Origin: an uncultured Chloroflexia bacterium
GTDB taxonomy: Bacteria > Chloroflexota > Limnocylindria > Limnocylindrales > CSP1-4
Direction of reading: 5' to 3'
NCBI GenBank assembly: GCA_963713095.1
Contig: CAVQKK010000009.1
Span: 196,991-260,990, forward strand
DNA: 64,000 bases
The notes below the pieces were generated by a model. It saw only the letters and a list, made by a program, of their open reading frames with translations. It did no database searches and was not told the origin of the DNA. Both the position numbers and the translations under genes were made by a program. Positions 6,301-22,254 of this stretch are shown here, piece after piece. The first letter of the stretch is position 1; every line of letters begins with the position of its first letter.

Positions 6301-7380
6301 GAACGCCTCGGCGTTCACGATGGCCTGCGCCGCCTGTCCCGCGAAGATCTCGAGGGTCTGCTGATCGTCATCCGAGAACTGGTCGTAGCCGGCGTGAGAG
6401 ACCACGATCACGCCCAGGACCCTGGACTCATAGGTCATCGGCACCAGCAGCATCGACTCCGGGCCGCGCGTGGCGCCAATCAGCCTCCCGCGCTGGTCCG
6501 AGGCCGCATCGCCAAGGCGGATCGTCTCGTTGCGGAGAGCGACCCAGCCGGTAAGGCCCTCGCCGATCCGGACCCGCAGCTGGTCCGGCGACGGGCGGCC
6601 GATCCCCATGAACTCGCCCTGGAATGCGATCGGCTCGCACATGCGGGTCCGTTGATCCACCCGGTAGACGCGGATCGTGTCGTGGGCGATCAGCCGGTCA
6701 GCCTCGGCGACGATCGCCTCGCCGATGCCCTCGACGTCCTGGATCCGGTTGAGTCGCAGCGAGAGCTCCTGGATCGCGCGAAGCCTGGCGGCACCCTGAC
6801 GGACGGTGTTGAACAGCCGCGCGTTGGCGACTGCCGTGGCCATCTGACTGGCGAACGTCGCGCACAGGTTGAGCTCGTCCGGCGTCCACGAGTACGGGCG
6901 GCGGTGGTACAGGACCAGGAGCCCCAGGGGTTCGTCACGAAAGACCATCGGGATGAAGGCGATCGTCCGAATGCCGAGCCGCTGGTACACGGGGGCGAAG
7001 AAGGCCGCGCCGGCTGGATCGTCGAGCACGATCGGCCGCCGTTCGCGGATGCTGCGCTGGCCGGTCGTGTCATCGTCCACGGTCACGGCGGTCACGGCTT
7101 CGATCAGCTCGGCTGCCACAGCGCGCTGGGCCGCCAGCCGGAACGGGTGTCGGCCGGGGTTCAGCAGCCATAGTCCGGCGACCTCGGCGCCGAACAGCTC
7201 ACCGGACGCGTCGAGGACGTCCTGGAAGACCTCCTCGAGCTCGAGATTCGCGCTCACCTCGCTGGCCACACGACGGAGGACCTCGGCGCGCTCGGCGCCG
7301 GATCCCGGCCTGTTCATGGGCTCTGCCTTCCGTCCATTGGGGCGGCGATCCGGCGAGCCGTGGTCCGGCGCGAGTGCCAT
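3364..7380 (-). CDS. multidomain c-di-GMP signalling protein: multiple GAF domains, a GGDEF domain (intact RYGGDEF), a second GGDEF (degenerate, VGSDEF) and a C-terminal EAL domain
   Basis: 1338-aa ORF with two 'TGL(R/S)NR' GGDEF-start motifs. The EAL region reads 'LHYQPMV...VEALLRW...ELEITES...DDFGTGYSSLSYL'. An alternative start is M22 (position 7317), which has a GGAAGG-like RBS. Confidence 0.8.
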   Translation of the reverse strand: MALAPDHGSPDRRPNGRKAEPMNRPGSGAERAEVLRRVASEVSANLELEEVFQDVLDASGELFGAEVAGLWLLNPGRHPFRLAAQRAVAAELIEAVTAVTVDDDTTGQRSIRERRPIVLDDPAGAAFFAPVYQRLGIRTIAFIPMVFRDEPLGLLVLYHRRPYSWTPDELNLCATFASQMATAVANARLFNTVRQGAARLRAIQELSLRLNRIQDVEGIGEAIVAEADRLIAHDTIRVYRVDQRTRMCEPIAFQGEFMGIGRPSPDQLRVRIGEGLTGWVALRNETIRLGDAASDQRGRLIGATRGPESMLLVPMTYESRVLGVIVVSHAGYDQFSDDDQQTLEIFAGQAAQAIVNAEAFGQVRRQRQELRHRLESQRRLLEVNERLLATLDPSGVLEMIADSLNAVVAYDSLAVYRIDRAAGVRRAVVARDRFAEEILSHEGAIDVGLTGWAIRHHEAVLANDAHRDPRSVQIPGTPEEPESMIVCPLLIGGEVIGTLNVGRLGGAEAHYARDEFELVQLFAAQASIALRNAEAHGAVMTRAERDALTGLRNHGAFQRELGIMVDAGEPFALLMLDLDAFKVYNDRHGHPVGDTLLTRVADAMTETIREGDRAYRYGGDEFAILLPGVDGPQARHVMERVRATVARLTERAGPLVTISAGVSGYPADGATKDELVEAADRALYLAKPPSLRGHGEEDPTRDPYLAAVDRTTLALLEHLDPEDLLREIVDRATELVGIRDGFLYLLEDGDDGQPTMTVRVGVGTFEHLVGYRLPTGTGVGWEVVRTGRPVVIDDYDAYPDRAPDLETERFGAVCSVPLRSGGRVTGCIGLASGEANRPLAERQIGAVARFAQLASIAIDHVRLLEHARSEGSQRAYAALHDPVTGLSNRTELLDRLAALMGNPPAVDGRTAAANPPAANPPASPARVALIVLDLDRFTFVNESLGHAAGDQLLAQVGRRLVGAARPSDLVARVGSDEFGILLDRVRSPRDAERAAARLATALAEPFDLGGREVTVAASLGLAVARPSVATPADLLKEADIALHRAKADPMRTLVRFDPEMRAQSLELATMEHDLRRAIERSELRLHYQPMVNLADGTVVGVEALLRWQHPDRGLVPPLSFISLAEETGLIVPIGQWVLETACRQARSWQRFGAAAPPVVSVNLSARQFAQSDLVDRVAATLADAGLDADALELEITESVVMDQSEASIERLQALRRLGVKLVLDDFGTGYSSLSYLRHLPLDTIKIDRAFVSGLGSDAADLPIARAVISLAHGLGIGVVAEGIETTTQLDCLRDLGCDRGQGYSFARPLASEQLEALLEGAKGAPLKLRPEPAETLEG
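4616..4645. repeat. in-frame 15-nt perfect tandem duplication (CCGGAGGATTGGCCG x2) inside the GGDEF/EAL gene, encoding PAANP-PAANP
   Basis: Read directly from the sequence: '...gccggaggattggccgccggaggattggccgcc...'. Confidence 0.8.
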
Positions 7381-7704
7381 GGGTCGGATGGTGGTGCCCT
7401 AGCGGCTCGTCCGCTGCCGAGTTCGGCGCGGTGTTGAGGTGTCAGCTCGCACCGTACTGAGCGTGGCTGGGTCGGGCGATAGGACGGTCGTACTCCGGGC
7501 CCGAAACGGATGGTCGCAGGGCGCGTCGTTCGCGGGCCACGGTCAGTTGCCCCCCTCAATCAGCCCGCTCGCGCGGCCGAGATCGCGTCCGGGCTCCAGT
7601 GGGCTGCCGGTCGCCGATCCGCGCCTATCACGAGGTACGGGCCCGCTTTCCCGGCGGGTTCACAATGGGCGCGGGAACGTGACCATGCGCTGAGGTGAGA
7701 TGCG

Positions 7705-8307
7705 ATGCGGATCGCGGTGATCGGGGCCGGCAACGTCGGCGGAGCACTCGGCAAGGCGTTTGTCGCCGTCGGGCACGAGGTGGTGTTCGGCGTGCGCGCC
7801 CCCGACAGCACCAAGACCCTCACCGCGCTGGCAGAGATCCCATCGGCGACCGCGGCATTGCCGGCCGAGGCCGTCGACGGGGCCGATGTGATCGTGTTCG
7901 CGCTCCGGCCCGTGGCGATCGGAGCCATCGTCGCGGACCTGCCGCCGCTGGCGGACCGGATCGTCATCGACGCCATGAACCGCCTCGACACAGACCCGCC
8001 ACGCTCGACTACCGAGGACCTCATCGAGCTCCTGCCCGGTGCCAGGTTCGCCAAGGCGTTCAACACGATCGGGTTCGAGAATCTGACCACCGCCCGGGAT
8101 CGCCGGACGCCGCTGGCCATGTTCGTGGCTGGCGACGACCCCGACGCCAAGCGAGTGGCGATGGGTCTGGCCGCCGAGATCGGGTTCGAACCCGAGGATG
8201 CCGGGGGCCTGTCGAATGCAAGGCCCCTCGAGGAGATGGTCCGGGTCTGGATCGCGCTGACGCAGACGCACGGCCGCACCGTGGGCTTCGCGCTGTCAAG
8301 GTCCTGA
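7705..8307 (+). CDS. NADP oxidoreductase, coenzyme F420-dependent family (NpdG-like F420:NADPH reductase)
   Basis: 'MRIAVIGAGNVGGALGKAFVAVGHEVVFGVR' is an N-terminal Rossmann motif typical of this family. Length is 200 aa. Confidence 0.65.
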   Translation: MRIAVIGAGNVGGALGKAFVAVGHEVVFGVRAPDSTKTLTALAEIPSATAALPAEAVDGADVIVFALRPVAIGAIVADLPPLADRIVIDAMNRLDTDPPRSTTEDLIELLPGARFAKAFNTIGFENLTTARDRRTPLAMFVAGDDPDAKRVAMGLAAEIGFEPEDAGGLSNARPLEEMVRVWIALTQTHGRTVGFALSRS

Positions 8308-8363
8308 CCACCCGACGTCGATCAGATGAGATTGCGTGGTTGCCCCATCCGGCGATCGGCACC

Positions 8364-8395
8364 GCGTACGTGGTACGCATGCGTACCGTGTACGC
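8364..8395. promoter_or_regulatory. near-perfect 32-bp palindrome (candidate TetR operator) containing a perfect 16-bp core GGTACGCATGCGTACC
   Basis: 'gcGTACGtgGTACGCatGCGTACCgtGTACGC' carries four GTACGC half-sites. It sits between the F420 reductase stop (8307) and the TetR start (8408). Confidence 0.5.
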
Positions 8396-8407
8396 TATGA
8401 TGGCAGC

Positions 8408-9097
8408 ATGAATACTGAGTCGATGGACGCCAACGAGACCTCCGTTCGGCCCGTCCTCAGCCGGGACCGCATCGTCGAAGCCGCAGTGGCCGTTGTGGAC
8501 GAAGCAGGAATCGACGGGCTGACCATGCGAGCCGTGGGTAGGCGCCTGCGCTCGGGCACGATGTCGCTGTACCGCCATGTCTCGGGCCGTGACGAGCTCG
8601 TGGGCCTGGTCCTGGAGGCGATGGCGGGTGAGATCCAGGCGTCTCCCCTGTCGGGCAGCTGGCGCGAGGACCTCGCGATCATCGCCCGAGACATGCGCAC
8701 GGGCCTGCTCAAGCGGCCGCAGCTGACCATCCTGCTCGCCTCGCGATCTGGGCGAGGTGGTGTCGAGCTTCCGCTGCTCGATCGAACGCTGGGCGTGCTT
8801 CGAGCCGCCGGATTCGGGCGGCGTGGGGCCGTCCTCGCCAACCATGCCCTGGGCAACTACGTCGCCGGCACCGCGCTGTGGGAGGCCGTCGGGCTCTCGG
8901 GATCGAGCGGAGAGGATCGCGAGTCACGACGTCAGGCCGTGGCTGACGTGACGGCGGCGCTCCCGGCGGACGTGTTCCCGAACCTCGCCTGGGTGGGACC
9001 CAAGATCGTGGCCGGCAGCGTCGACGACCGGTTCGAGTTCGGCCTGACGTGCCTGCTCGACGGGTTCGAGGCCTACCTCGCCCGACGCAAGGGATAG
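8408..9097 (+). CDS. TetR/AcrR family transcriptional regulator
   Basis: N-terminal HTH 'RDRIVEAAVAVVDEAGIDGLTMRAVGRRLRSGTMSLYRHVSGRDELV'. Length about 229 aa. Confidence 0.75.
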   Translation: MNTESMDANETSVRPVLSRDRIVEAAVAVVDEAGIDGLTMRAVGRRLRSGTMSLYRHVSGRDELVGLVLEAMAGEIQASPLSGSWREDLAIIARDMRTGLLKRPQLTILLASRSGRGGVELPLLDRTLGVLRAAGFGRRGAVLANHALGNYVAGTALWEAVGLSGSSGEDRESRRQAVADVTAALPADVFPNLAWVGPKIVAGSVDDRFEFGLTCLLDGFEAYLARRKG

Positions 9098-9175
9098 GGC
9101 GGGCGCGGCCGCGCGGATCAGACTCCGCCGCGGATCAGGCGGGCGCCACCTCCGGCTCGACCGTCCTCGCTCGAC

Positions 9176-9198
9176 GGGGATAGTAGTAGAGGCCCTCG
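9176..9198. repeat. left imperfect inverted repeat (GGGGA-TAGTAGT-AGAGGCCCTCG) at the island boundary
   Basis: The reverse complement of 21547-21570 is GGGGGG-TAGTAGT-TAGGGGCTCG. It lies exactly at the high-GC to lower-GC transition. Confidence 0.35.
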
Positions 9199-9244
9199 AA
9201 GGGGCGGCTCAGTCTGCGATAACGCTGAAGCTCGTCTGAGCTAC

Positions 9245-9759
9245 TCAGGAGACGTGCGGCGTCCAAGTCCATGCCGCCGGCTCGGAGCTCACGGAGCAAC
9301 TCCGCCTCGCAGCCCCGCCCGACGGTACATAGAGCACGCCGTCAACATCGCTTGGACGCTCCACTTCACCGGCAACGAGGGCGACCAGTGCTCACGTCCA
9401 AGGAGGCCGATGAAATAGCAGAGTTCGAGAATGACATTCTGGCGGGCTCGGGACTGGAGTCCCTCTAGCGGAACTCCGTCGCTGGTAGCGGCCTCAAGCG
9501 CACGAAGTTCCGCGCCCAGGTCGTCTGGTGTCATCACGACAACCGCAAACGCGACGTCCACGTTCGCCTCGAACTTCTCGATGATCGTTCGCCCGCGGTT
9601 CGGTTCCTCGACGAGGATCACAGGTTCAAGGCCCACGAGGGTCATAAGCCTGGCAACCGCGTCCCGTGGCCCGGCCTCATGTCCGTGCACGATGAAGACG
9701 CGTCCCGATGCGCCCGTGCGACCTCGGGACTGCGCGAGCCGGCATCGACGCGCACGCAA
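9245..9759 (-). pseudogene. TIR-like nucleotide-binding domain protein (COG4271/pfam10137 type), disrupted by a frameshift near 9385
   Basis: 'RVFIVHGHEAGPRDAVARLM...EPVILVEEPNRGRTIIEKFE...VDVAFAVVVMTPDDLG...RARQNVILELCYFIGLLGR'. After a -1 shift the sequence continues '...VERPSDVDGVLYVPSGG', the canonical PSD.GV.Y C-terminal motif of this family. Confidence 0.5.
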
Positions 9760-12700
9760 CTGGCTCTAAGCGAACGTCCCCGGTCCGCCACGGACTGCGG
9801 CGAGCGTCGGAGGCGCTCATGTCATCGTCGCAGCCTTCGATCGGACGGCTGAGTCCGCCAGCTGCGGGGCCAATGCCAGCTTCGGAGACCCCGATACGAT
9901 CAAGGGTGAGTTGCAGCTCCTCGAGGCATCGCGCGTCGGGCGCGAGGTGGACTGCGCAATCGGCGGCCGTATTCGAAGAACGGTTTGAAGAATTTGGCCC
10001 GTGCGTATCGCAGAACCGAGTGCGGCGGCGAGAAGTTGTATCTCACGAATGAGAGCGTCCATTAGGCGTCGCTCTCCCATTCCAGCAGTTCTTACGGACC
10101 CTCAGCCAGAGGGCGCCTCCGACTGACTTCCCACTCCCGATCGATCGCCACTGCGTTTTGTGGGTTTGTAAGGGTTGGTCGAAGCTCAAGGGTAACGAGA
10201 GCGTTCTGGTAGCTGCAGAAATATCGGCACAGAGACCGGTTCAGGACCAAGGTTGCCGAGTACGCAGCGTGAGGTGGTACCACCTGGCAGTCTCCACGTG
10301 ATCAGCGCGGAGACACCCGACCACTCCAAGCGTATAGCATCACAGCTAACACCTCGCGCATGCTAGTCTCCGCGATCGGTTCCACAGCACGTTCGTAGTT
10401 GTCGATGCGGGTCGTGAGCTCAAGCAGCGCCGATAAGAAAGTCCCCGAGCTCGGGATCTGATCCGGTTGGTCGAACTCAGGAACAAGCGTCTCGTGAGCG
10501 TCTCAGCTGAATCGGCGCTGCAGCCAAGCGACGCCGCCTTCAGGACGTAGAAATTCGCGAGCTCGTTAGGATCCGAAGCGGATATCGTTTCAGTGTTGTA
10601 ATAGGTACTAAACTAAAAATATGAGTGTACAAGCTACCAAAATGGAATAAGACTCGCACTACACTGTACAGCAGTCTCGTGCAGTTCTGGACGATCTCCC
10701 GCGCAGACCGCCTCAAGGTTGCGCGCCCACTGGGATCCGACGCCGAGCGACCAATAAACACATAGCGCCGGAATGAGCACCACATCATCGCGGACTGTCG
10801 GGTGGACTATAATATGATATAGAGAATATAATAGCTTACGAGTGAGCGCGTGGTTGAATTCCCCGCGTGACAGAAGTATCGTAATCAGTAAGAGAGAGCT
10901 AAGTAGCCGACGATCAGGACGAAGTACTGGTAATCGCGAATGACGGATAGTGCGGTCTAAATATTTGAAGGTTTGGCGGTGCTGGAAAGTCGAGCGCCTC
11001 CAGTTAGGACCTCGTAACGTACTGCTCGAGTTACCATTTCACACTCGATCGTATGTCTTCAAGGTCGCGAACGGTTGAACTCACGAATACGAGAGTTGCG
11101 CCGGGTGGTAATACAGAGTCGACCACAGCTCCTCGCTAACGGTGTGTGTAGAGCGGCGATAGCGAAGCAAGCGCAAACGCGATCCCCTCACTAGGTGCTA
11201 GTACGCCTCCTAGAAGAAGTCCTCGTCAAGGCGGTAGCAGTGAAGGTGCTCTTCGGCTGGACGCTAACCCGGTAATAGACCATGTGCCGGACAACCCTAG
11301 CCGAAAATCAAGACGATCCGAACTCGAAGAACAAGAAGAAAGAATGAGACGGCGTGAAGAACGTCGTGAAATTATTTTTTTGAGAGAGTGCTATGAATAG
11401 AACTAAAGAGAAGAACTGCAAGATGAATAGTATCACTACCACTTCACAGCGTTTACCTGGACGTAGACCTTGTCGACCCGAGCTTGTCCTCATAGATACA
11501 CCATCAACCCGACGTGCGCCCGACATGCTCGCAGGGGCTGTTGGACGGAGATCTCTCTTATCTCATTGCGACGAGCTCATCGAGTACTCGCGCCGAAGAA
11601 GTCGGGTTTTCTCGCTTTTAGTTTCGCGAGTAGCGCTTTTTCTAGTTCGCCGCGCAGATTCCGATACGTCGTCTCCTCTTGCTCCTCGGGCGTGAGAACC
11701 GACTCAGCAGCGTGCTCGGCTCTCTGTTCGTTGTCGCTAGTAGATGTCTTCGACTTACCGCCGATGAAGTTGACGATCTCCGCCTTCGCACCGCCACCAG
11801 CGCCTGGCCGATCAGCCACGGGTTGACCATCAGCAGATCCGCACACGCTAGGTTCCGGAACTTGCCGTGTCCCTCTGATCCGAGCAGTCCAGCGTGGCGC
11901 ACGCACGTCAACGCTCATTGTGTTCGGTTGTTGACGTGCGCATGCGCCCGAGGCAGGAACTGCGCGAGATCCCGAGGCCGAGCTTATACAGCCACGCGAT
12001 CTGCTCCTCGGCCTCTGCTCCGGTATGTATCTCACAATCGCCGTCGAACCGGAGCAGGAGCACCATCAGACACGGTAGACGAGAACGTCCACCTTTCCCT
12101 CCATAGCGGATTGCGATACTCCAAGCCTTCGCACCGCCGACGGCCTCGTTGGCCCTCAGCCAAAGCTACGGGTTGACCATCCCGTTCGTCGGCTTCTCGC
12201 GTCACGCAAAATAGTCATCACCCGACTCTGCGACCGCTCGCATCACCCGTTCCTCCGCAGCCGCGAGCGCACGGTGAACTCTGGCGCCTCGGTCAGCTCC
12301 ATGGTCCGAGCGCTCCCACTCCCGAGCCCGGCACCACGACCCCCATCGTCATCCAGCGGATCCTCGTGAACATCGCTCGACTCAATCCGTCTCGGCCTCC
12401 CGAGCCGGTTGCTCTCCTGCCGATGTGGCGGACAGTGATGGCGATTACGTCGAGCCGCGGCAGGACCCCGACGCTTCCACGGTATCCACGACCGCCGACT
12501 GGTTCCCTCCTTCACCGTCACGGCGTCCGGTTGGGTGAGCAAGTCGTATAGTGCGCAGGCGGACGCACCCGCGCTCGCCACCCGGTCGGGTGGTCTCCCG
12601 TAGCGGGACCCCAGTCCGTCGTCGACTCACGGCATACGCAGGTACTCGTCGGGTTTGCTCGACTACGAGGCGATGGAGTGATAGAGCGGCCGGCGAGCTC

Positions 12701-13288
12701 GGCGGTTGCGGCACCAACGTATCGAGGTGTGCATCAGGAGGAAGCTGAACGGCTTCACGCTCGCGGCGTACGACCGGCTTGCGTTTTACTGATCGAACAA
12801 TCCTGCCAGTACGGGCGTGGTGATCGGCGCCTGGCTCACGGCGGGTAGATCGAACCATGAGGGTTCGGCACCCGGATCGTCACCGTTCGTCTCCGCGATG
12901 ATCCGGCGCCACCGATCTCGACCCATACGGGCCACGTCGCATGCCAATCGTCGGCGTTCGATCGGTGCTGATACAGCTCAAGGCTATGGTTAGATGCCTT
13001 GCGGATGACGATGCCCGCGGGGGTCAATAGAACAGGCATACCGCGAAGTGCTGGTCGAGATAGCTACAGTCGTGACGTGCGAAAATGGCACAGTGCCGAT
13101 TGATCGGACCAACGGCGCGCGGATCTCCCGGCGGGCGGCCCCAGATGGCTCTCGAGGGCGGCGATTGGGTGCCTTCATCGTCTCTCGTCTATGTGATGCG
13201 AAGTGACCGATGCGAACTTATGGTTTTTGATATGGTTTAGATTAATGTATGTTTCTTATACTCGAGCTTGAGCATATCGGGGATCGTA

Positions 13289-14284
13289 TCACGATCGTAC
13301 GGATTGAGTAGGTTGATGGTCGCAGGATGCGTCGACGACGGCCTCATGACAGCGCCCGGACCGCAAGGGCCCATCGGCCGATGCCGATCCTACGGGAGCA
13401 GGCAACGAGCCCACGACAGGCGTCGACACGATGGCCACCGAGTCAGTGTCGCAAGCGACATAGGACCCGATGCCGGCAGCGACGTGGCCTGGGCGAGCCC
13501 GAGCGGCAGGCCCCGGCAGGCTGTTGGTGCCAGTGCAGGGAGCGCCGGCATTCATGGCAGTGACGCCCGTAGGTGCAGTGCGGAGAACGCCCAGCCCGAT
13601 CGCAGCTCAGCGACACCCGTGGATGACGTGGCAAGCACTTGAGGAACTTGTCGAGGCGTTAGCGTTCGCTCTCCGGCAGCGTACCGTGTTTGATCCGCCC
13701 GTTCCTTGATGACTTGGCGAAGAGGTCGTAGCGCAGTAGGTGGATCTAGACGCGTAATGGAGAAGAAAGTTGTGTAATAATATGTAATTAAAGTAGAGAG
13801 TAATTGAATCGCTGAGGATTTCCCGCTCATTGGGGTGGGTGACGGCGATGAGGCGAGGGTTGCCAGAGCGGACCAGGCGACATTTGACCCGATCGTCCAC
13901 GCGCCACGCCCGCCTCGGCGACCAACGCGACGGCACGAGGACCGCCACGAGCGACATGACGATGAGCACTGGAAACACGTTGGCCAGCACGCGTCCAGCC
14001 AGTCACATGGAGCCGATGACTCGTGATTGTGTCGAGGAAAGCCGCCGCGTCGGCGGTGGCGTCGACCGCTCGAAGTGGTCCGAGATCACGTGCGTCCACA
14101 GATCGAGCAGGACGAACACGGTCGGGTACATCGACGCGAAGTCGACGTACCGCACCGGGAGCTCGACGCCGCGGATCGGCACTCGGTCCGCCCGCCGTAG
14201 TAGGCGGTCATCGAGTACCCCAGGACCGCGTCGGCCACGAGGTTGGAGCGCGCCATCGGCTGCCTGTCCCGAGGCGAAGGTCAA
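13289..14284 (-). pseudogene. family B DNA polymerase (PolB) remnant, heavily decayed and frameshifted
   Basis: Three conserved motifs are present. A YxGG motif ('GYSMTAYYGGRTE', about 14178-14216) is followed about 22 aa later, after a 1-nt frameshift, by motif A 'VRYVDFASMYPTVF' (about 14090-14130). Compare Pfu '[30 protein letters not shown]'. Motif C 'SYVACDTDSVAIV' sits at 13436-13465. A degenerate motif B-like 'AKSSRNGRIKHG' lies in the AT-rich stretch between them. Confidence 0.5.
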
Positions 14285-14430
14285 GAGCCATGCCGCAGCT
14301 GGAGGCGGAGACCCCGTTTGGGGTCGGCCCCGCGCCTATCGAGGGCGATCCTCGGTGCCATCCGGGTTGAACCGGACGACCGTCGGCTGTAGCGAAACGT
14401 GGTCAGCACACCGTGCGCCGCGACGGTGTC

Positions 14431-16113
14431 CTAGTGGTGCTCGACCTCGAACTCCTTGGCGGCCGCATCGGGCCCCAGCGAACGATCGGTGAGCACGTAA
14501 GAGAGGGTGTGTATGTCGAGGAACAGCACTTGGTAGTAGTCACGTTCGCCGACGAGGTTCGACTCATCCACGATCACCGGGCCGGTGAAGCCGATGAACT
14601 GACGCTTGGAGCCCAGCGACTGGACCTGGAGGTGGGTCGGAACATTCGACCTCGATGGGTCCCATCTTGGCCATCGGCATCGGGGCCCAGCGAACGATCT
14701 GGAGATTTCGACCCACCTGCACCGATCGCGGCCAGCCTTCCATTTCCACAGAGGCAGACGTGCCAAGCGGCCGGACCATGAGGCCCGACAGGGCCTTCGA
14801 ATGCCAGAGAACACCCCTATCCGGCGAGGGTGGCTGGCGATGGCGAAGCGTTCCAGAGCACTACCCCGGGATGAACCGTCAAGCCTCTTGTGGAAATGTA
14901 GCGAGCGGGCGCTTCGGCCGCATGCGTCTCGACGTAGCGCTCGAGGACCGCCCGGTCGGCCGGTGCCAGGTCGTCCGCGGCGATCAGGCCCTCCTGGAGG
15001 AGCTCCCGTCCCGCGCGCGGTACACGCGCTATCTGCCGAACAGCAGGTGCTGCGACGTGGCGAAGATCGTCTCGGTGACAAGCACGACCTCGAGCTCGGA
15101 CGGCTCAAGCGACTCTTGTGGATGTAGCGAGCGGGTGGGACGGTTGTAGGCGCGAACGGCAATCGGACCTTTGTAGGTCCCGGAGCGTCGGCGCCGGCTC
15201 ATGCCGCGATAGGGCTCGATGGCGCACCCTTCCACCACTCGGGTCCAAGCTGCTCGCGCAGCCACACGACGAGCCGGATCAGCCAGGCCGCGCTCGGCCA
15301 CAGGAGACTTGAGAACCGGCCAGCACCTGGCCCGCTACGAGGATCGGGTCGGCATCGGCTCCGGCCATCGCCTGAGCGAGCCGATGCGCTGCTCGGTATC
15401 GCGGGGGCGATCGGACGCAGCCGGCGGCGCAGCTCTCGGAAGGCACGCTCGATCAGGTTGGTCGTGCGCAGGCTGGCCCGGAGCGACTCGGGCAGCGCGA
15501 ACACGGCGAGCAGGCTCTCGAGATCGCGCTCGAGGTTGCGCACGAGGCCCGGGTGCCGTGAGCCGCCAGCTCCTCGCCCAGCGCCGGCCGCAGTACGCCG
15601 GCCGTGCTCCTCGCTGGTAGACCCGTAATGGAGCTCGTGGCCGGCGGCCAGCCGGTCGACGACTCGGCACGGGTGACGAGCAGGACCCGCCGGCCGTCGA
15701 GCGTGAACGTCTTTCGACGTAGCTAAAAGAGCAGGGTCGCGCGCTCGGCCCGGAGGTAGTGAGAGCGCGTCGAGTACGTTCCAGAGGGATGCGATGGGTC
15801 CAGCAGCGCTGGAGGGCGACGCCTCGGGGAACGGTCGTCGGGACGGTATTTCTCGCGGAATGCGATCGAAGGCTCGAGGTCTCCACCGCCGGCCGCAGCC
15901 GCGAAATCCCGTCCGGCGGCGAAGGCCGTCGGCGCGTGACCAGCAGCACCTGATCGGGATCGAGACCCCCGCTCGACGAGCGAGGTCAGCAGTCGAGCGC
16001 GCGTTCACGAGCGTATGGGTCCCTAATTCGAATTCTTGTAGCCACAGCCATGGACTCCGCAGCGAGATCGCTCCGGTGGACGGTTCCACCGTTGGCGAAA
16101 CCGTCCACCTCAC
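14431..16113 (-). mobile_element. IS256-family (Mutator-like) transposase remnants; no intact ORF
   Basis: The signature 'FALPESLRASLRTTNLIERAFRELRRR' (about 15445-15525) is the IS256 C-terminal motif. Flanking frames are scrambled. A roughly 35-bp direct repeat 'tcaagc.nctcttgtgga(a)atgtagcgagcggg' occurs at about 14880-14914 and 15103-15136. Confidence 0.4.
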
Positions 16114-16128
16114 GCGGGCACTGTTGTA

Positions 16129-16946
16129 GTGCGAGATTCCCCGCTATGGCAAGAGAGCCGCGGTCTACGAGGAACTCGCCGCTTGGGCAAGGTCGCAGCA
16201 CTACCCGAGGGTGACGGGCTCGGTTGTTCACCTGTGGGTGAAGAGGGCGCTCCTGCCGCGAGCCGGCCGCCGGTACACCGCGTTCGGTGTATACCAAACG
16301 ACCCTCGGACCCGGGACACGGGAGCAACTCCCAGGCTATGCCACTACCGATACGAGGTCGGCATTGGCCGGACGGCCTTGCTCCGTGGCCTGCTCTGGCT
16401 CGAAGGGTTCGACCTCCCGCCGGATGCCATTCGGGAGGCGCTCGAACGCTATCGGCGACGCCGCCTGGAACGAGAGCGGGCCATCAAGCGCCGGGCGGCA
16501 CGCCGCGATGCAGAGGACGATCCCGACGACTTCATTGTCGAGTACATGGCGATGCAGCCGCTCTGGAATCTGATGCTTCCCGAGCTCTCGTCCATCGAGC
16601 GAACAACGGTGCTCACGGAGGTCGCGCTGTCCCTGGCCCTCGGCGACCGCATCTCGCCCTTCGTAATGCGGATGATCACCCGCGAGTTCGCCGGGACGCG
16701 CCGTTCGACCGGGGAGCATTCTCGGGCCTCATGGAGGGCTTGCGGTCGGTCCATCGGGAGGCTGCGGAGGTGACCGATCAGCATCTCGCAACCGCGCGCA
16801 GGCTGTCGGCCGACGGCTATGGCGAACGCGTGACCGACCAGCCCTCACGGGCTCAAGGTAGCGGGCGCTCCAACGGCTCGCGGCGTCCGGTGCCAGGCAG
16901 GCCATCGGGGCGTTCCGACGCCATGCGGGCCGGGCAGAAGCGCTGA
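16129..16946 (+). CDS. hypothetical protein within the island, no recognisable family; apparent frameshift near 16700
   Basis: Coding-like GC3 in 'YRYEVGIGRTALLRGLLWLEGFDLPPDAIREALERYRRRRLERE...FIVEYMAMQPLWNLMLPEL...'. Coding potential continues in another frame ('...FSGLMEGLRSVHREAAEVTDQHLATARRLSADGYGERV'). Confidence 0.3.
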
Positions 16947-17096
16947 CCGACCCGCAACTGACGAGAGCGGACGACCCCGTCGAATGAGACAATGGGGACA
17001 TCACCATAGCGCCCCCGCGGCCGCGGTAACGGCCCGGGGGCATGGCACACGGAGGTCAAGTCCGCATGCGCCGTCAGGCTATCGATCGCGGGCAGC

Positions 17097-18673
17097 GTGG
17101 CCAGCCGACCTCACGCCCCCGCGGGGTGTCCTCGTCCTCTCTGGCTACGGCCTCTCCGGCGTGTGTGGCGAGGCCGGCTCAGGGTCGCCGACGGGATCGG
17201 GCGGCTCCGCCAGGAAGGGTTCGTCCACCGCGCCACAGGTGGACTCAAGCGCATGGTCGTTCTCGGCCATACCGGGTCGATCACGTTCGATGCGATCCGC
17301 TGGCTCGCCGACATCGGTGCGGGCTACGTCCAAGTCGACGAGGACGGGCGGGTACTGGCGGCGTTCGGGCCGCAGGGCACCGACCGGCCACCGGTGCGGC
17401 GTGCCCAGGCGGACGCGCTCGACACGGCATGGGGGATCGTGATCGCCCGGGAGCTCATCCACCGCAAGCTCGATGAGCAGGTGCGGACGCTGCGCGACCT
17501 CGAGCAGGTACTGCGGGTTGATCCCTCTGCATGGGCGGCGATCGAGCTGGCGCAAGGGAGGCTCCGCATCGCCGCGACGCGCGATGACATCCGAATGGCG
17601 GAGGCTGCAGCGGCGGCTGCGTACTGGGGGCCTGGGCGCCGCTGGAGCTCCGCTGGGCGCGTCGGGACGCCGACCGGGTGCCGACACACTGGCGCACGTT
17701 CGGGTCACGAGCGTCGCCGCTGACCGGTGGCACGAGGCTTGCGGTCAATCCGGCCAACGCGATCCTGAACTACCTGTACGCATTGCTCGAGGGGGAGGCA
17801 TCCATCGCGGCACGGATCGTGGGGGTCGATCCGGGGTTGGGCGTCCTCCATGCCGATCAGCTCAACCGCGACTCGCTGTCGGCAGACCTCATGGAACCGG
17901 TGCGTCCGATGGTGGATCGATACGTGCTCGATCTGCTATCCAAGGGCCCCTTTGCAGCGTCGGACTTCCATGAGACCCGTCAGGGCGTATGTCGCATTAC
18001 CCCACCATTGGCGCATGAGCTGGCGATGACATCGATCGAATGGGGGCGATGGGCGGGTCGCATCGCGGAAGATGTCGCCACGATGCTCGAGCATGGGGCA
18101 ATGGATGGTGCCCCATCGAACCGGGCACCATCACGATCGAACGGGAAGCGATCGCTCCCAACCCCGATCAGTGGGCGCAATCGGAGCACCGGACGGGGTA
18201 GATCCAAGGGGCGGAAGCATGGTTCGACCACACCGAGGGTGAGTCGAGCATGCATCCATTGCGGGGGTCCGGTTCCATCGGGACGCATGACGTGTGGGGA
18301 CGCATGCGAGCAAGCGACCCGCGCGATTGGGGTCGATACGTTCGCGTCGGCAGGGGCGGAGGCGCTCCGCAAGCGGCATGCGGAAGGGGTCGCGGTTCAG
18401 CTCACTGATGCGGGACGAGGTCGGTTGCGCGACCGCGCATCGAGCAGGGTCCGCGAGGCCCGTGCATGGCAACGCGAGCATGCGTGGCCATCGGACCCTG
18501 ATCGGTTCGAGCGGGAGATCCTGTCAGGGCTGGCAAACGTGCCGGTTCGCGATCTGGTCGAGGCGACCGGACTCTCCGATGCCTACTGCCGGAGGATCAA
18601 GCGGGGACAGGTGGTGCCCCATCCGATGTGGTGGGACGCGCTCCGGAATTCAGTCAAACCGGAACCCGAATAG
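17097..18673 (+). pseudogene. Cas1-family integrase homologue with a C-terminal Zn-ribbon + HTH extension (casposase-like / Cas1-solo). One single-base frameshift in a G5 run at about 17627-17631.
   Basis: N-terminal part: 'LKRMVVLGHTGSITFDAIRWLADIGAGYVQVDEDGRVLA...VRRAQADA...ARELIHRKLDEQ'. After the shift: 'AVNPANAILNYLYALLEGE...GVDPGLGVLHADQLNRDSLSADLMEPVRPMVDRYVLDLL'. These contain the Cas1 catalytic motifs GxLH and DLMEP.R. The C-terminus has 'CIHCGG...CGDAC' and an HTH 'VRDLVEATGLSDAYCRRIKRG'. No cas2 or CRISPR repeats are nearby. Confidence 0.65.
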
Positions 18674-20319
18674 ACCGCCGTCTTCAGTGGCGTCAGTCAG
18701 ACGTGGCTCAACCACGCTCTCGTGACCCAAGCTATCGACAAGCTGCGGCCAGTCGTCTGAGTTGAGGGTTACGAGGTACTGGAAACCAACTCGTTCGGTC
18801 TGGCCGCGAGCATATTGGAGCGCGGTGCCCACCTGACGAACGTCCACGCCGTCGAAGAGATGGCTGTCGTGAATGAGGAAGCCTGGGGCAACTCCAGCGG
18901 ACGCGGCGGCCGCGTACAGGGCCATGTCGAAGGAGAAGATCTCCATTCTTCTCACCCCTGAACTGCGATCGCCTTGGATCGCCGGTCGGAGCTGAAGGCC
19001 CGACGCATCGACCGAGATCTCAAGGCTACCGGGCTCCTCGTACAGGAAGCCGGAGGCGTGCTCAAATGACCTCGCCACGCGCTCCAGGGTCGCCTCCTGC
19101 TCGGCGAGGTCCTGCTGTAGCCGCAGCAACTGCTGGCTCTTTTCGACTCGGAGCTCTGCCCGACGCCGCTCGACATCGACGGCCGATGAGAGTGCCTCCC
19201 GAGCCCTGATTGCGTCCAACTCCGCCTCGGCAAGTTGCCGCTGAATCGCGAGAAGCTGCTCAGTGGCGCCGTGCTCTCCAAGCAGACGCCGAAGTTGTTC
19301 CTGGCGAGTGGTCAGGCGTGAGACCTCGCGTTGTCGGCCCTGGATGCGAGCTCCGGGCGCCGCCGTCTCCCCATCTAGGTAGCGGCCTCGGTTGCGCACG
19401 ACGGCCTCGTGAAACGCTTGGGCTTCGTCGAGGCGATGCATAACGAGTTCAGGGCATGACGATGCCGAGCTTCTCGTATGCGGGCGTCACGTCGACGGCT
19501 TGGTGCTGCAATCTCAGCCTGTAGAGCTTCGTCGACCTGGGTGATCTGTCGGCGATCGACCACATCCAGGTCCGCCAAGGACCCGAGGGTCTCCGTCACG
19601 GCCGCTAGCTCAACCTCAAGGTCGTCGTATTGTGGAAGGACCCGGAACTCAGAGGCCGCGCGTCTAAGCTCCTCGAGTCTCCCGTCCGCACGTGCAGCGC
19701 GTGCGCGGAGTTCCCCGGAATAGGCCCGGCGGTTGAGGGTGGCATCCTCCTCGCGAATCCGCTGGAGCTCGGCCGCGATCTCCCAGTCCAAGCCCAGTAA
19801 GTACATGAGCCACGCCTCTTGGTTCCCACGCGGCTGCTGAGGGAAGTACTTGAGAGGCGACAAGAAGCCCCCGGTGGCCTCACGGCGGGCGAAGTACCCG
19901 AAGAGTTGGCGCATTGACGGTTCGCCGGGTGCTCCGGTCAAGCCAAACCAAGCCCTCCCTAAGTGCTGCTTCCATTCGTCGACCGAGAGGCCCTGAGCCT
20001 GGCCATCGTCGCCGAGTCCAGTGACCTCGACATGGCCGAGCGTGGACGTCGAGCGCTCGACACCCAGGGTGGATCCCGCCACATCCATCTCCATCCCAAA
20101 GGTCACACCCTGGAGCGCCTCCTTGCGAAACAAGGAGCGCTGATCAACGTTTGCGCCGGTTAGGAAGTGGATGATCTCCACCAAACTCGACTTGCCAGCC
20201 CGGTTTCGAGTCTGCTGGTCGCTTGAGATCGCGGTTCGGTCCGCAAGAACCACACTGAGGCCTGGGCGGAATGACATCGCCTTGAATGAGTTCAACGAGC
20301 TCCAGACGCGGTAGATCAT
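18650..20319 (-). pseudogene. SMC-like ABC ATPase of an ABC-3C/Lamassu-like defence module; frameshift near 19340-19440
   Basis: The N-terminal half (19375-20319) has the Walker A 'TRNRAGKSSLVEIIHFL' followed by a long coiled coil. The C-terminal half (18650-19441) has more coiled coil, then 'GDRSSGVRRME' and a Walker B-like 'GFLIHDSHLFDGVD'. The two halves overlap by 67 nt in different frames. Confidence 0.6.
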
Positions 20320-20558
20320 CTCTTCGCGAGCCGTCCATCTCGCAGATCCACAGCATCGATCGCGTAGAGCAGGTCCAGGGCAAGCACGAACCAGTCGAAC
20401 GGGACCGCTGCCTCACCAGTCCAGCTGCCGGTCTCGCTGCGCTTGTACCGATCCCATAGGGCGGTGACCGGGGCAGGCTCAGCGAGGAGTGTGAGCACCT
20501 CCGCACCTATGTGGATCAGCGAGCGCCGTTGGTCGAGGTGTTTGGTGGGAAGGATCAC
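20316..20558 (-). CDS. small (80-aa) alpha-helical middle component of the three-gene ABC ATPase module
   Basis: Both ends overlap the flanking genes in ATGA junctions. Ends 'FDWFVLALDLLYAIDAVDLRDGRL'. Assignment rests on size and position; the middle-component family is not securely recognised. Confidence 0.4.
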   Translation of the reverse strand: MILPTKHLDQRRSLIHIGAEVLTLLAEPAPVTALWDRYKRSETGSWTGEAAVPFDWFVLALDLLYAIDAVDLRDGRLAKR

Positions 20559-21478
20559 GGCACGCCCGTCGGCACATCATCGAAGATGTCGCAGCGCTCG
20601 AACAGATAGGCGAGGAGGGCCAAGGCCGCAGCCTGCTCTGCTGGGACGACGACGCGGTCCCCACTGACGAAGGCCTGAAGTTCGGCGAAGATTCGGTCCG
20701 GGCCTAGGCCGTGGCCCTTGAGCTCCTCATACCTGGCCCTGAAGGCCGCCGCGACGCGATCGGCCAACGCAGGGTTGGGCGACCTCCCGAAGAACTCGCG
20801 CACTTGTGGCGTCCTCTCCATGCCGACCACGAGGAGACGCCGCACGAAGTCAGACAGCCTGTTGTACTCGAGCTTCTCCGGGGAGGGCGCGGTGACAGAC
20901 GGAGCGATCGGGACCGGGCCGAGCGCCAGCGCTTGCACGAGCGGCTCAATGGCATCAAACCGGAGACCAATCACGTCGCGCCGCTCGGGAGCCGGGCCCA
21001 AGAGCGCGCGGATGTCCTCGTCCGACAATCGGAACACCTCGTCGCGAATGGCCTCGAGCGACCAAGTCGCCACTGTGAGGCCCTCGGGATCGTTGGCCTC
21101 GGGCGTCTTAGCCTCCGCGAGTACGTTGCAAGCGACGCCGAGGGGGTGGTTGTGGACGTAGACCCACTGCTTCATGGTTGGCCAATGAGTCTTTGCCCCA
21201 GCGAAGTCAGCCTTCATCTTCGCCACGCCCCGGGCGTCCATCTCGTCCGGCCCATAGCACTGGAACACTGTTCCACTGCTCGCTAGGTAGCCATCATTCT
21301 TCAGATCGCCAGTTGGCCCCGCTGCCCTGACGCGCACAAAGTCCCTTGGGTGTCCAAGACTCATCACGTCAGCGAAGAAATCCTGGAAGGCGGCGCCACG
21401 ACGCTTCAGGAACTCAACCTGCAGGCGGAGTTCGTACCAGTCCCTGGCTACCTGATCCACCGACTCCCCCTGCCGCAC
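20555..21478 (-). CDS. predicted effector component of the module: N-terminal PD-(D/E)xK nuclease-like region (possibly LmuA/Cap4-like) plus a helical C-terminal domain
   Basis: 307 aa. 'HPRDFVRVRAAGPTGDLKNDGY' is compatible with a D...D-x-K nuclease core. The stop overlaps the start of the small middle gene. Confidence 0.35.
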   Translation of the reverse strand: MRQGESVDQVARDWYELRLQVEFLKRRGAAFQDFFADVMSLGHPRDFVRVRAAGPTGDLKNDGYLASSGTVFQCYGPDEMDARGVAKMKADFAGAKTHWPTMKQWVYVHNHPLGVACNVLAEAKTPEANDPEGLTVATWSLEAIRDEVFRLSDEDIRALLGPAPERRDVIGLRFDAIEPLVQALALGPVPIAPSVTAPSPEKLEYNRLSDFVRRLLVVGMERTPQVREFFGRSPNPALADRVAAAFRARYEELKGHGLGPDRIFAELQAFVSGDRVVVPAEQAAALALLAYLFERCDIFDDVPTGVP

Positions 21479-21546
21479 ATGCGCCTGCGAATGGAGTCTA
21501 ACGCGAGTGTGGGCGATCGCCCCGACCAGTAGGCGGCGGCAACTTC

Positions 21547-21570
21547 GCGAGCCCCTAACTACTACCCCCC
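21547..21570. repeat. right imperfect inverted repeat partner of 9176-9198
   Basis: 'cgagcccctaACTACTAcccccc'. It sits immediately before the GC content rises again. Confidence 0.35.
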
Positions 21571-21627
21571 AGACTCGTTGACGCGATCGCAGCGCGGAAC
21601 TAGACTCAATCCCGACGAAATCGGTCG

Positions 21628-21680
21628 GAATTCCCCGGCGCGGCGGCTCCCTCGCCGCGGGCGTCCCCCCGGGGAACTCC
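21628..21680. promoter_or_regulatory. inverted repeat GGAATTCCCCGG-N29-CCGGGGAACTCC upstream of the Rrf2-suf operon; candidate operator or structured leader
   Basis: Read directly; the arms match 11 of 12 bases and lie about 100 bp upstream of the Rrf2 gene. Confidence 0.25.
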
Positions 21681-21783
21681 GGCCGGTCGCCACGGCGACC
21701 CGACGAGGACCGAACCCCTGACCACGCGCGCGAGCTTCCACGGATCCGGCGCCCTTGCCTTCAGCACCAAGGGCGAGTACGGC

Positions 21784-22254
21784 GTGCGGTTGATGGTGCA
21801 GCTGGGTCGCCGTTTCGGCACGGGTCCCGCGAGCCTCGCGGAGATCGCGCAGGTGGAGGATCTGCCGCGCGCCTATCTCGAGCAGCTCGTGACCAGCCTG
21901 CGGGACGCGGCCCTGGTCGTGTCCACCCGGGGCGCGCACGGAGGGTACGAGCTGGCGCTGCCGCCGGAGCAGATCCGGATGAGCGACGTGCTGCGAGCCC
22001 TCGAGGGCCCGATCGCGCCGATGATCTGCGCGACCGACGACCCGGATCACGCCGCCTGCGAGCGATCGGCCCGGTGCACGGTCAACGTGCTCTGGATGAA
22101 GGTCCGTGACGCGATCACGGACACGCTCGATGCCATGACCCTGGCAGACCTCGTCCCGGTCCGCCATATCGCGCTGGATCCGCCCGAGACGCTCGGCCCT
22201 TCGGCCCCGGCCGGATCGCCGGCCACGGCCGGATCCACGGCCGGCGTCGCGTGA
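21784..22254 (+). CDS. Rrf2 family transcriptional regulator (IscR/SufR-like context)
   Basis: 'GGYELALPPEQIRMSDVLRALEG' matches Rrf2. A conserved 'FSTKGEYGVRLM' N-terminus is in frame upstream of the first canonical start (GTG 21784), so the true start probably lies upstream at a non-canonical codon (possibly the CTG at 21718) or has been altered by an indel. Confidence 0.65.
   Translation: MRLMVQLGRRFGTGPASLAEIAQVEDLPRAYLEQLVTSLRDAALVVSTRGAHGGYELALPPEQIRMSDVLRALEGPIAPMICATDDPDHAACERSARCTVNVLWMKVRDAITDTLDAMTLADLVPVRHIALDPPETLGPSAPAGSPATAGSTAGVA

Follow-up and report, generated by a model that had tools for sequence, protein, structure and literature searches.

Within a 64,000-nucleotide stretch of contig CAVQKK010000009.1 from an uncultured Chloroflexia bacterium (hereafter the window, numbered from its first letter), the genes of the host are interrupted by some 12.4 kb of DNA that holds the broken remains of a Cas1 homologue and of a family-B DNA polymerase (PolB) between imperfectly inverted ends. 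The question raised by this locus is what kind of element these remains belonged to, and how it came to lie there. Casposons are self-synthesizing DNA transposons whose movement depends on a Cas1-type integrase. An initial annotation had proposed a decayed casposon with cargo in an actinobacterium-like genome, which turned out to be essentially right save for the host and for the quality of the target-site duplication. Positions 9176–21568 are very probably a fossil casposon of bacterial family 3, within the AceAut-C1 subgroup.

A Foreign Block in a Chloroflexota Genome

The GC content of positions 9176–21571 is 0.634, compared with 0.698 in the left flank and 0.706 in the right one, and reaches its minimum (0.50) at 10.5–11.5 kb. 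Open reading frames (ORFs) with host-like composition (at least 80 residues, a GC content of at least 0.8 at third and at most 0.6 at second codon positions) occupy 84% and 76% of the left and right flanks, respectively, but 0% of the island. These figures on GC and codon usage bear out the lower-GC island first noticed at about 9.18–21.57 kb, and 9176–21568 is a compositionally foreign block. The nearest named relatives are metagenome-assembled genomes (MAGs) of Chloroflexota, so the host is not the actinobacterium initially supposed; both the flanking genes and the relatives point to Chloroflexota.

The Casposase

One core gene of the block encodes a Cas1 homologue:

17066–18670, plus strand: casposase pseudogene (Cas1 with a Zn-ribbon and a helix-turn-helix, HTH), carrying two or three single-base frameshifts, identified by Pfam, homologues and a tree

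The frameshifts lie near 17088, 17158, and 17628, and Pfam PF01867 (Cas_Cas1) is matched in two frames, at 17244–17630 (E 2e-11) and at 17738–17992 (E 1e-20). Joining 17066–17086, approximately 17092–17157, 17160–17627, and 17630–18670, which occupy three frames, yields a protein of approximately 520 residues. The catalytic-region motifs LLEGE, LHAD, and DLMEP are kept both in the window and in the family alignment. Towards the C-terminus the protein holds a Zn-ribbon (CIHCGG...CGDAC, at 18251–18307), whose pattern CxxC...CxxxC comprises four cysteines that are invariant in the family alignment, and an HTH-like segment at 18545–18607; the HTH domain PF13560 is on record in some of the homologues. 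The matches in two frames and the located motifs confirm the Cas1 (casposase) homologue with C-terminal Zn-ribbon and HTH that had been proposed from the outset. After frame correction, the protein has more than 1600 full-length homologues of approximately 520 residues, with 97–100% coverage and 48–71% identity among the matches listed. Over its three frames, the Cas1 of the window is 60–64% identical to the intact Cas1 of the related loci L004 and L087 (related loci are cited here by such numbers).

A gene of this kind could also be the relic of a degraded CRISPR-Cas adaptation module, with the polymerase-like fragments and the repeats lying beside it by coincidence. Source databases name the homologues ‘CRISPR-associated endonuclease Cas1’, and the family profile scores equally well in the PDB against the CRISPR Cas1 of A. 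fulgidus (4n06, E 9e-31) and the casposase of M. mazei (6opm, E 2e-30), so that this comparison decides nothing. Because the profile could not separate casposase from CRISPR Cas1, a neighbour-joining tree with 100 bootstraps was built on the reference alignment of Krupovic 2014 (PMC4046053 supplement), to which the Cas1 of the window and 12 family members were added. In this tree, the window, its family, and AceAut-C1 are monophyletic in 100 of the 100 bootstraps, this group is monophyletic with the other family 3 casposases in 89, and all casposases are monophyletic with respect to CRISPR Cas1 in 74. The Cas1 thus falls inside the casposase clade, together with AceAut-C1 and family 3. No CRISPR-like repeats were detected in the 64-kb window, and a six-frame Pfam scan of the island (9000–21800) matched neither cas2 nor any other Cas family, the rest of the window not having been scanned for cas genes. 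Cas families were likewise missing from the annotated contexts of the related loci, and the initial statement that neither CRISPR nor cas2 is present holds within these limits. Considering also that a PolB is the conserved neighbour of Cas1 in 70 of 83 loci, and that terminal repeats and 14-bp duplications are present (the latter perfect in relatives), a CRISPR module is an extremely improbable source of these remains.

The Family-B Polymerase

The polymerase gene is shattered:

12407–15166, minus strand: family-B DNA polymerase pseudogene, apparently of the casposon CDTDS type, in at least eight pieces and three frames, found by tblastn with the intact PolB of L004, L087, and P0162

The pieces align across residues 14–994 of a protein of approximately 1000 residues, with 35–83% identity to the best relative piece by piece, while three stretches (roughly residues 74–164, 362–585, and 663–822) are missing. 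The motifs AYYGGRTE (14182–14205), DFASMYPT (14120–14143), and ACDTDS (13439–13456) were all located on the minus strand, and with them the YxGG, DFASMYPT, and DTDS motifs from which the polymerase had originally been recognized. In the six-frame scan of the island, the window’s own fragments gave no Pfam match to PolB at E ≤ 0.01, and the identification was therefore made through the intact relatives.

In 70 of the 83 related loci, a protein of approximately 1000 residues, labelled hypothetical by the source databases, is encoded 2–5 kb from Cas1 on the opposite strand. Its alignment exhibits Exo I (DxE), Exo II (NLPFD), and Exo III (YxxxD), as well as motifs A (DFxSMYPT), B (KxLANxxYG), and C (CDTDS), and 13 of 19 family members match Pfam DNA_pol_B_2 (best E 9e-9). 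Because the family sequence profile found only weak Pol alpha matches in the PDB (E 0.05), the structure of an intact relative was modelled with AlphaFold (AF2), with a pLDDT of 88.6 and a pTM of 0.88. The top 50 PDB matches of this model are all family-B polymerases (E 1e-11 to 2e-9), among them those of herpes simplex virus and African swine fever virus, E. coli Pol II, phi29, Pol epsilon, and Tgo/KOD, and the protein is predicted to fold as a member of this family. The homology of the polymerase is hence significant through the intact relatives and the model, not through Pfam on the fragments of the window. The CDTDS motif gives its name to the PolB_CDTDS cluster, which includes the polymerase of the A. 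boonei casposon (PMC7544198; Kazlauskas et al. 2020). Judged by ACDTDS at motif C in the window and by the family consensus, the polymerase described here would be of this casposon type.

Small Core Genes and Gene Order

In the intact relative L004/L005, whose Cas1 is 63% identical to that of the window, the genes follow the order 1001 residues (minus), 150 (minus), 156 (minus), 85 (minus), 295 (plus), Cas1 (plus), and cargo. When its proteins are compared with the window by tblastn, the same order is recovered for the 1001-, 150-, 156-, and 295-residue genes and Cas1. The small genes have left the following remnants:

15208–15324, minus strand: C-terminal remnant of the 150-residue HNH-like gene that precedes PolB in intact relatives (profile E 9e-8; tblastn with L087, E 5e-5)
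15625–15975, minus strand: remnant of a conserved gene of 156–167 residues, HTH-like in relatives (tblastn with L004, L008, L010, and L087, E down to 8e-9)
16133–16419, plus strand: remnant of a conserved gene of approximately 295 residues, found ahead of Cas1 in relatives (two frames; tblastn E 1e-10 to 2e-12 with L004, L009, and L015)

The profile behind the first of these was made from nine relatives and compared with the six-frame translation. The 150-residue gene (L004:7689–8138 and homologues) displays the pattern CxxC..CxxC..[D/H]H..N..H, typical of HNH nucleases, and probably represents the divergent HNH of this casposon clade. No HNH was found among 63 ORFs at a Pfam E ≤ 0.01; for the 150-residue gene itself, Pfam HNH gives no better than E 0.018, obtained with 2 of 15 members, and the match to McrA in the PDB no better than E 1.

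Terminal Repeats and Target-Site Duplication

The ends of the element are marked by the following features:

9162–9175, no strand: degenerate left copy of the 14-bp target-site duplication, CGTCCTCGCTCGAC, placed by the family rule N9-TTGAC abutting the GGGG end
9176–9212, plus strand: left terminal inverted repeat, apparently decayed, GGGGATAGTAGTAGAGGCCCTCGAAGGGGCGGCTCAG, placed by pairing with the right end (family hidden Markov model, HMM, E 1.8)
21532–21568, minus strand: right terminal inverted repeat, GGCGGCGGCAACTTCGCGAGCCCCTAACTACTACCCC on the plus strand (family HMM E 2.3e-8)
21569–21582, no strand: right copy of the 14-bp target-site duplication, CCAGACTCGTTGAC, which fits the family rule N9-TTGAC

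The left end at 9176 (GGGGATAGTAGTAGAGGCCCTCGAAGGGGCGGC) pairs with the reverse complement of 21532–21571 with an alignment score of 16, which is reached by 0.01% of random 42-mers from the window. The terminal-repeat HMM was built only from 14 ends of related elements, with the flanks kept out of the model; these ends read GCGGCAACTTC-N10-CTAtCTACTACCCC, followed by a flank of 14–15 nt. The left end is only the fourth-best match of this model in the window, in the right orientation and at the exact boundary, within the 78 nt that follow the TetR stop codon, and it sits exactly where host codon usage ends. It appears to be a decayed inverted copy of the right-end repeat. The imperfect inverted repeat initially described at the ends thus stands, with a pairing above chance, a strong right end, and a weak left one.

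The right flank obeys the family rule, while the left flank does so only as a mutated copy that reads TCGAC, and only CTCG(C)T(C/T)GAC can be aligned between both. The suspected degenerate duplication is therefore there as a degenerate pair; perfect pairs are seen only in the relatives. By the same rule, 21568 is more likely to be the last position of the element than 21570/71. Tandem copies were considered as the cause of the mismatched duplication and rejected, as tandem copies in relatives have identical duplications. A 12-nt match to the inner part of the family terminal repeat (CAGCGGCAACTT, E 0.64) also occurs inside a cargo gene, the ABC-3C ATPase, at 19232–19243 (minus strand), and is most likely due to chance.

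The Insertion Site and its Right Junction

The element lies between two host genes that are themselves outside of it:

8336–9097, plus strand: TetR-family regulator, left host flank (Pfam TetR_N, TetR_C_1)
21784–22254, plus strand: Rrf2 regulator, right host flank (Pfam Rrf2, E 7e-33)

The Rrf2 gene is followed by sufC, sufS, and sufU, a synteny that is shared with L084–L087, L010, L013, and L016. Orthologues of the TetR regulator with 78–80% identity occupy the equivalent place, with the same synteny, in the large contigs L084–L086. Farther upstream, on the minus strand (3364–7380), an intact gene with host codon usage encodes a signalling protein of 1338 residues with four GAF, a GGDEF, and an EAL domain. 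No Rfam match was found in the 64-kb window.

The terminal repeat is missing from L086, where homology with the window sets in at 21571/2 (...CCGACGG / AGACTCGTTGAC, the slash marking the break); the locus has GGAGACTCGTTGAC, and no element lies next to it. Since this homology begins exactly at the right junction, the right boundary is confirmed. For the left junction there is no clean empty-site counterpart, because L084 and L086 carry other genes to the left of the site, and comparison with related genomes has therefore delimited only one of both ends. L085, with a gap of 918 bp, had also been considered as an empty site and was rejected, as it retains a remnant of the right repeat; L086 became the reference instead.

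Among close relatives, the intergenic region between TetR and Rrf2 (9098–21783 in the window) is a variable hot spot. In L085 (8691–9607) it measures 0.9 kb, with an ORF of 170 residues, and in L084 (8691–12223) approximately 3.5 kb, with a MarR regulator and a multihaem cytochrome, both holding a casposon end of 37 nt only. In L086 (8691–11691) it extends over approximately 3 kb, with PadR and MarR regulators. Rrf2 of L086 is split into two ORFs (11692–12134) and its SufS is truncated (13829–14395), which suggests that some related MAG assemblies contain indel errors and calls for care in reading single-base frameshifts as pseudogenisation.

Elements have also settled at this site in other genomes: L010/L087, L013, and L016 bear them at the same Rrf2-suf site, and L001 has one downstream of sufS and ahead of sufU, where a similar promoter-like site lies. 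These occurrences favour site-specific targeting.

A Target Rule at a Promoter-Like Site

Family 2 casposons target the 3′ ends of tRNA genes. The 64-kb window holds no tRNA gene, so the idea of a tRNA target is without support here. A different regularity emerges from the flanks of the relatives, where all 18 of the family ends found by HMM (13 loci, all of Chloroflexota type) have N9-TTGAC, or the mirror image GTCAA-N9, beside them. In the window, the right copy of the duplication ends within the following feature:

21578–21606, plus strand: sigma-70-type promoter-like site of the Rrf2-suf operon, TTGACG-N17-TAGACT, found by promoter scan

The scan found this one site, compared with 0.0 expected, and its −35 box coincides with the end of the duplication. 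Seven other target sites of the family, among them the empty one of L086, have the layout TTGAC(G)-N17/18-TAGACT or TATACT as well. The TTGAC of the duplication would accordingly occupy, as far as sequence can tell, the position of the −35 box in a consensus sigma-70-type promoter-like site, and the promoter layout beside the host operon would stay intact because the duplication regenerates the hexamer. A casposon target ending in TTGAC was not reported in the literature searched, and none has been described there for family 3.

Just downstream of the −10 box lies a palindrome, CCGAC-N7-GTCGG (21612–21628), probably the Rrf2 operator. It is kept with slight variation at the Rrf2-suf site of L084–L086, L010, L013, and L016, and in L001 ahead of sufU.

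Intact Relatives

Searches with Cas1 and PolB returned more than 1600 and more than 2400 clusters of homologous proteins, respectively, and relatives of Cas1 occur at 220 places in a collection with one genome per species. Most of the related loci end approximately 5 kb beyond PolB, which left the left duplications outside, whereas L087 was taken around PolB instead. Elements of the family range from 10 to 18 kb. Perfect duplications flank the 10.3-kb element of L001 (GACAGACGATTGAC), that of L013 (CTGCCGTTCGTTGAC), and the 12.4-kb element of the acidobacterium L061 (CGTGCGCGGTTGAC). A complete relative of 17.9 kb, with a perfect duplication of 14 bp (GTCAACGAGGCCCG), occupies the Rrf2-suf site in L087 (2341–20266). 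It holds an intact Cas1 (6212–7840), the HNH-like gene, and PolB, and beyond PolB a type I restriction–modification system and an Mrr-type nuclease. A second element begins 14 nt after its end, in tandem. In L005, L007, L012, L013, L015, and L087, elements form tandem arrays with a shared duplication.

Two kinds of reduced elements accompany these. A mini-element of 1.8 kb, with both terminal repeats and an ORF of 116 residues, is present at L005:9546–11321 and in L006, while L004 has only its start (from 14810); in L005 it lies between two identical 14-nt spacers (GTCAACGGTGGCCT) within the tandem array, and looks like a non-autonomous derivative. The elements L001:2504–12818 and L013:1846–15643, on the other hand, combine near-perfect terminal repeats, perfect duplications of 14–15 bp, and a casposase with no detectable PolB, that of L001 containing MscL- and YidB-like genes; these may be casposons that lack a PolB and are mobilised in trans. 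Taken together, the intact copies and their perfect 14-bp duplications, the tandem arrays, the mini-element, and the PolB-less versions would indicate recent activity of the family.

Cargo and Decay

Outside its core, the element holds the following cargo and debris:

9289–9759, minus strand: truncated TIR-domain cargo gene (CAP12/Pycsar-type TIR; PADLOC candidate PDC-S35; PF10137 E 2.6e-24, PDC-S35 E 1.6e-38)
9760–12406, no strand: decayed left arm with no recognisable gene, including the GC minimum
15411–15561, minus strand: C-terminal fragment of an IS256-family transposase (Pfam Transposase_mut, E 0.0024, model positions 302–351)
18650–20319, minus strand: ABC-3C ATPase cargo gene (PDC-M68B, with a DUF2326 C-terminus; PADLOC), split by a frameshift into 19375–20319 and 18650–19441
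20316–20558, minus strand: cargo gene of the ABC-3C middle component MC6 (PF20293 E 2.3e-19, match at 20331–20552)
20555–21478, minus strand: cargo gene of an ABC-3C component with CTD10 (PDC-M68A; PF20275 E 2.8e-17, match at 20581–20950; PDC-M68A E 1.3e-20)

The Pfam match of the TIR domain spans 9387–9702 on the minus strand, and its ORF of 156 residues covers only positions 112–213 of the 264 of the PDC-S35 profile, which is short of full length. In the ATPase gene, two overlapping ORFs match positions 1–296 (E 1e-57) and 319–581 (E 8e-71) of the PDC-M68B profile, and DUF2326 lies at 18655–19048 on the minus strand (Pfam E 1.5e-33). With this ATPase, a middle component, and a CTD component, positions 18650–21478 have the composition of an ABC-3C (PDC-M68) operon, which is probably inactive because its ATPase is split by a frameshift. 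The IS256 fragment, recognisable by the signature LRTTNLIERAF at 15439–15471, is fused in frame to the HNH remnant. The cargo suspected initially (TIR-like, ABC-3C/Lamassu-like) and the IS256 debris were thus all recovered. Between 9.76 and 12.4 kb, no ORF of substance and no match in six-frame Pfam, PADLOC, Rfam, or plasmid DNA comparisons was found, nor any match to ORFs of the related elements. Eight related elements have ten large cargo ORFs downstream of Cas1, of which only two, both in L004, match defence models (SIR2 and PDC-S18). L087 contributes its type I restriction–modification system, and defence cargo is not claimed as a rule.

A block with so varied a content may raise the suspicion that the TetR-Rrf2 hot spot gathered unrelated pieces, namely a casposon core at 12.4–18.7 kb, defence genes, and debris of insertion sequences, in which case the ends at 9176 and 21568 would bound no single unit and the TIR-domain and ABC-3C genes would be independent arrivals, not cargo of the casposon. 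Several observations fit such a composite: the intergenic region varies in close relatives (0.9 kb in L085, approximately 3.5 kb in L084, and 3 kb in L086), the left end scores weakly and the duplication is a degenerate one, related elements have nothing in common with the left arm, and the IS256 fragment testifies to later insertions. However, the right end is a strong family repeat placed exactly at the break of homology with L086, the left repeat stands exactly where host codon usage stops, and the 12.4 kb between them lie within the family range of 10–18 kb. In addition, both arms of intact relatives hold cargo that varies and includes defence genes, all within perfect duplications, beyond PolB in L087 and after Cas1 in L004. 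A composite origin is consequently very unlikely.

The frameshifts of the casposase allow for another view, in which they are homopolymer or assembly errors and the casposase is intact, the element being a non-autonomous copy that could still be mobilised. One of the shifts indeed falls in a run of five G (17626–17630), each frame is free of stop codons and 60–71% identical to intact relatives, the related long-read MAG of L086 has split housekeeping genes (Rrf2, SufS), and PolB-less relatives with perfect duplications exist (L001, L013). Nevertheless, two of the three shifts lie outside homopolymers, and the damage extends to PolB, the HNH gene, the left repeat, the ABC-3C ATPase, and the TIR-domain gene. 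Because the host genes of the flanks are long and intact (such as the ORF of 1338 residues, with 76–84% coverage by host-like ORFs), the rate of assembly errors looks low, and three shifts in 1.6 kb are far above this background. An intact casposase is thus unlikely, and this copy is most likely a functionless fossil that can no longer move.

Some features of the locus weigh against its reading as a single family 3 casposon. The left terminal repeat is weak when taken alone (family HMM E 1.8), the duplication copies CGTCCTCGCTCGAC and CCAGACTCGTTGAC agree at no more than 5 of 14 positions if gaps are disallowed (8 of 10 if one indel is admitted), and the 78 nt that separate TetR from the left end align to no relative, other genes occupying this place in L084 and L086. 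L084 and L085 retain the 37-nt remnant of the right repeat at the very same spot, which would point either to an old shared insertion that predates the split of these lineages or to repeated site-specific hits. On the side of the genes, the Cas1 tree is a simple neighbour-joining tree with a limited reference set, the PDB comparison ends in the tie between 4n06 and 6opm already described, and the HNH is recognized by a residue pattern and weak scores, with its motif region gone in the window. Finally, some of the single-base frameshifts could be assembly errors, as in L086.

A Proposed History of the Element

From the intact relatives and from published work on other casposases, we infer how the live element would have moved. 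The casposase, with its C-terminal Zn-ribbon and HTH, would bind the terminal inverted repeats of approximately 37 bp (GGGGTAGTAGTTAGAG...GAAGTTGCCGC) and join the 3′ ends of the element to the target with a stagger of 14 bp, whose repair would yield the 14-bp duplication. Between the ends, its own family-B polymerase (CDTDS), the HNH-like nuclease, and small HTH proteins would form the conserved core, and the arms outside of it would hold variable cargo, with defence genes in some copies. The duplicated 14-mer would end in TTGAC at the position of the −35 hexamer, so that insertion would regenerate the promoter on one side. The copy described here would have settled upstream of the operon Rrf2-sufCSU, in a high-GC member of the Chloroflexota, and decayed where it stood. 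Its HNH gene would have been struck by an IS256 element, of which the greater part was lost afterwards; PolB is shattered, the casposase frameshifted, the left repeat and the duplication have drifted, and the cargo is truncated or frameshifted. Homology, gene order, ends, right junction, and decay are shown by the sequence, while the chemistry of transposition, a promoter function of the target, and the succession of the decay events are inferred.

Implications

This copy itself matters little, and its value lies in the correct annotation of 12 kb whose genes the sources label ‘CRISPR-associated Cas1’ or ‘hypothetical protein’. The wider family is of moderate interest, being abundant, with signs of recent activity and a consistent target motif at the −35 position, while the searchable literature describes bacterial casposons from a handful of examples. 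A more ambitious proposal, to which we give somewhat less than an even chance, is that AceAut-like family 3 casposons are a large and recently active family of soil bacteria (Chloroflexota, Acidobacteriota, and others) whose casposase picks its target by reading the −35 hexamer, with a 14-bp duplication that always ends in TTGAC, and whose insertion regenerates the promoter, puts the element immediately upstream of it, and brings defence cargo. If true, this would be the first target rule for bacterial casposases and a natural case of Cas1-type integration beside a promoter, as in the CRISPR leader and first repeat. Speculatively, the TTGAC rule might be relevant to the proposal that the CRISPR leader-repeat unit arose from the target site of a casposon. 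The consistency of the TTGAC target makes target choice by a bacterial casposase directly testable, and the ABC-3C, TIR, SIR2, and type I restriction–modification genes of some copies would place casposons among the mobile elements by which defence genes are moved.

Comparison with Known Systems

As a family 3 casposon of the AceAut-C1 subgroup, the element is of a kind known since 2014, and this copy is new. Family 3 was described in that year from Streptomyces albulus, Henriciella marina, Nitrosomonas sp. AL212, and the AceAut fosmid, with duplications of 14–15 bp (1 bp in HenMar-C1), and in AceAut-C1 the Cas1 carries a Zn-binding domain as well as an HTH, both C-terminally (PMC4046053). The element shares with them the Cas1 clade, the domain order Cas1-Zn-HTH, an encoded PolB, intergenic insertion, and a bacterial host, and its relatives also share the duplication of 14–15 bp, which in the window is a degenerate pair. 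Its repeats also start with GGGG, as do those of NitAL212-C1 (GGGGTATG...) and StrAlb-C1 (...GGGGGAGTAGAGAGAG) (PMC4046053). However, AceAut-C1 is listed with repeats of 602 bp and a size of 20 kb, compared with approximately 37 bp and 12.4 kb here. As further differences, the elements reported here reside in soil Chloroflexota, with relatives in Acidobacteriota, Gemmatimonadota, Dormibacterota, and Myxococcota, phyla of which none is named in the casposon papers searched; the copy of the window is pseudogenised throughout, the presumed HNH gene is very divergent, and a target ending in TTGAC has not been described for family 3. No paper on casposons in Chloroflexota or Acidobacteriota was found in the literature searched, and an unpublished wider survey of casposons is mentioned in PMC9966878.

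Family 2 casposons, exemplified by AciBoo-C1 of Aciduliprofundum boonei and those of Methanosarcina mazei, resemble the element and its relatives in the C-terminal HTH of the casposase, in a CDTDS-type PolB (PMC7544198), in a duplication of 14–15 bp, in site-specific integration, and in tandem arrays that share the duplication. An HNH gene, which has been reported in all family 2 and 3 casposons, would be a further common feature. Contrary to the family described here, whose targets lie beside promoter-like sites, they have archaeal hosts and tRNA-gene targets, and their Cas1 forms a separate clade of the tree.

Pipolins and other self-synthesizing defence islands (PMC11551731) are likewise integrated elements with their own PolB and exchangeable defence cargo, represented here by the ABC-3C and TIR-domain genes and in relatives by SIR2, PDC-S18, and type I restriction–modification. 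Nevertheless, pipolins rely on a tyrosine recombinase, direct-repeat att sites, and a primer-independent PolB, whereas the element described here has a Cas1 integrase, inverted repeats, and a 14-bp duplication. Finally, CRISPR adaptation by Cas1-Cas2 at the leader-repeat junction involves a homologous integrase, a staggered integration that duplicates a short unit, and a promoter-adjacent target; the casposon differs in having neither Cas2 nor an array, and in that its cargo is an element of 10–18 kb rather than a spacer.

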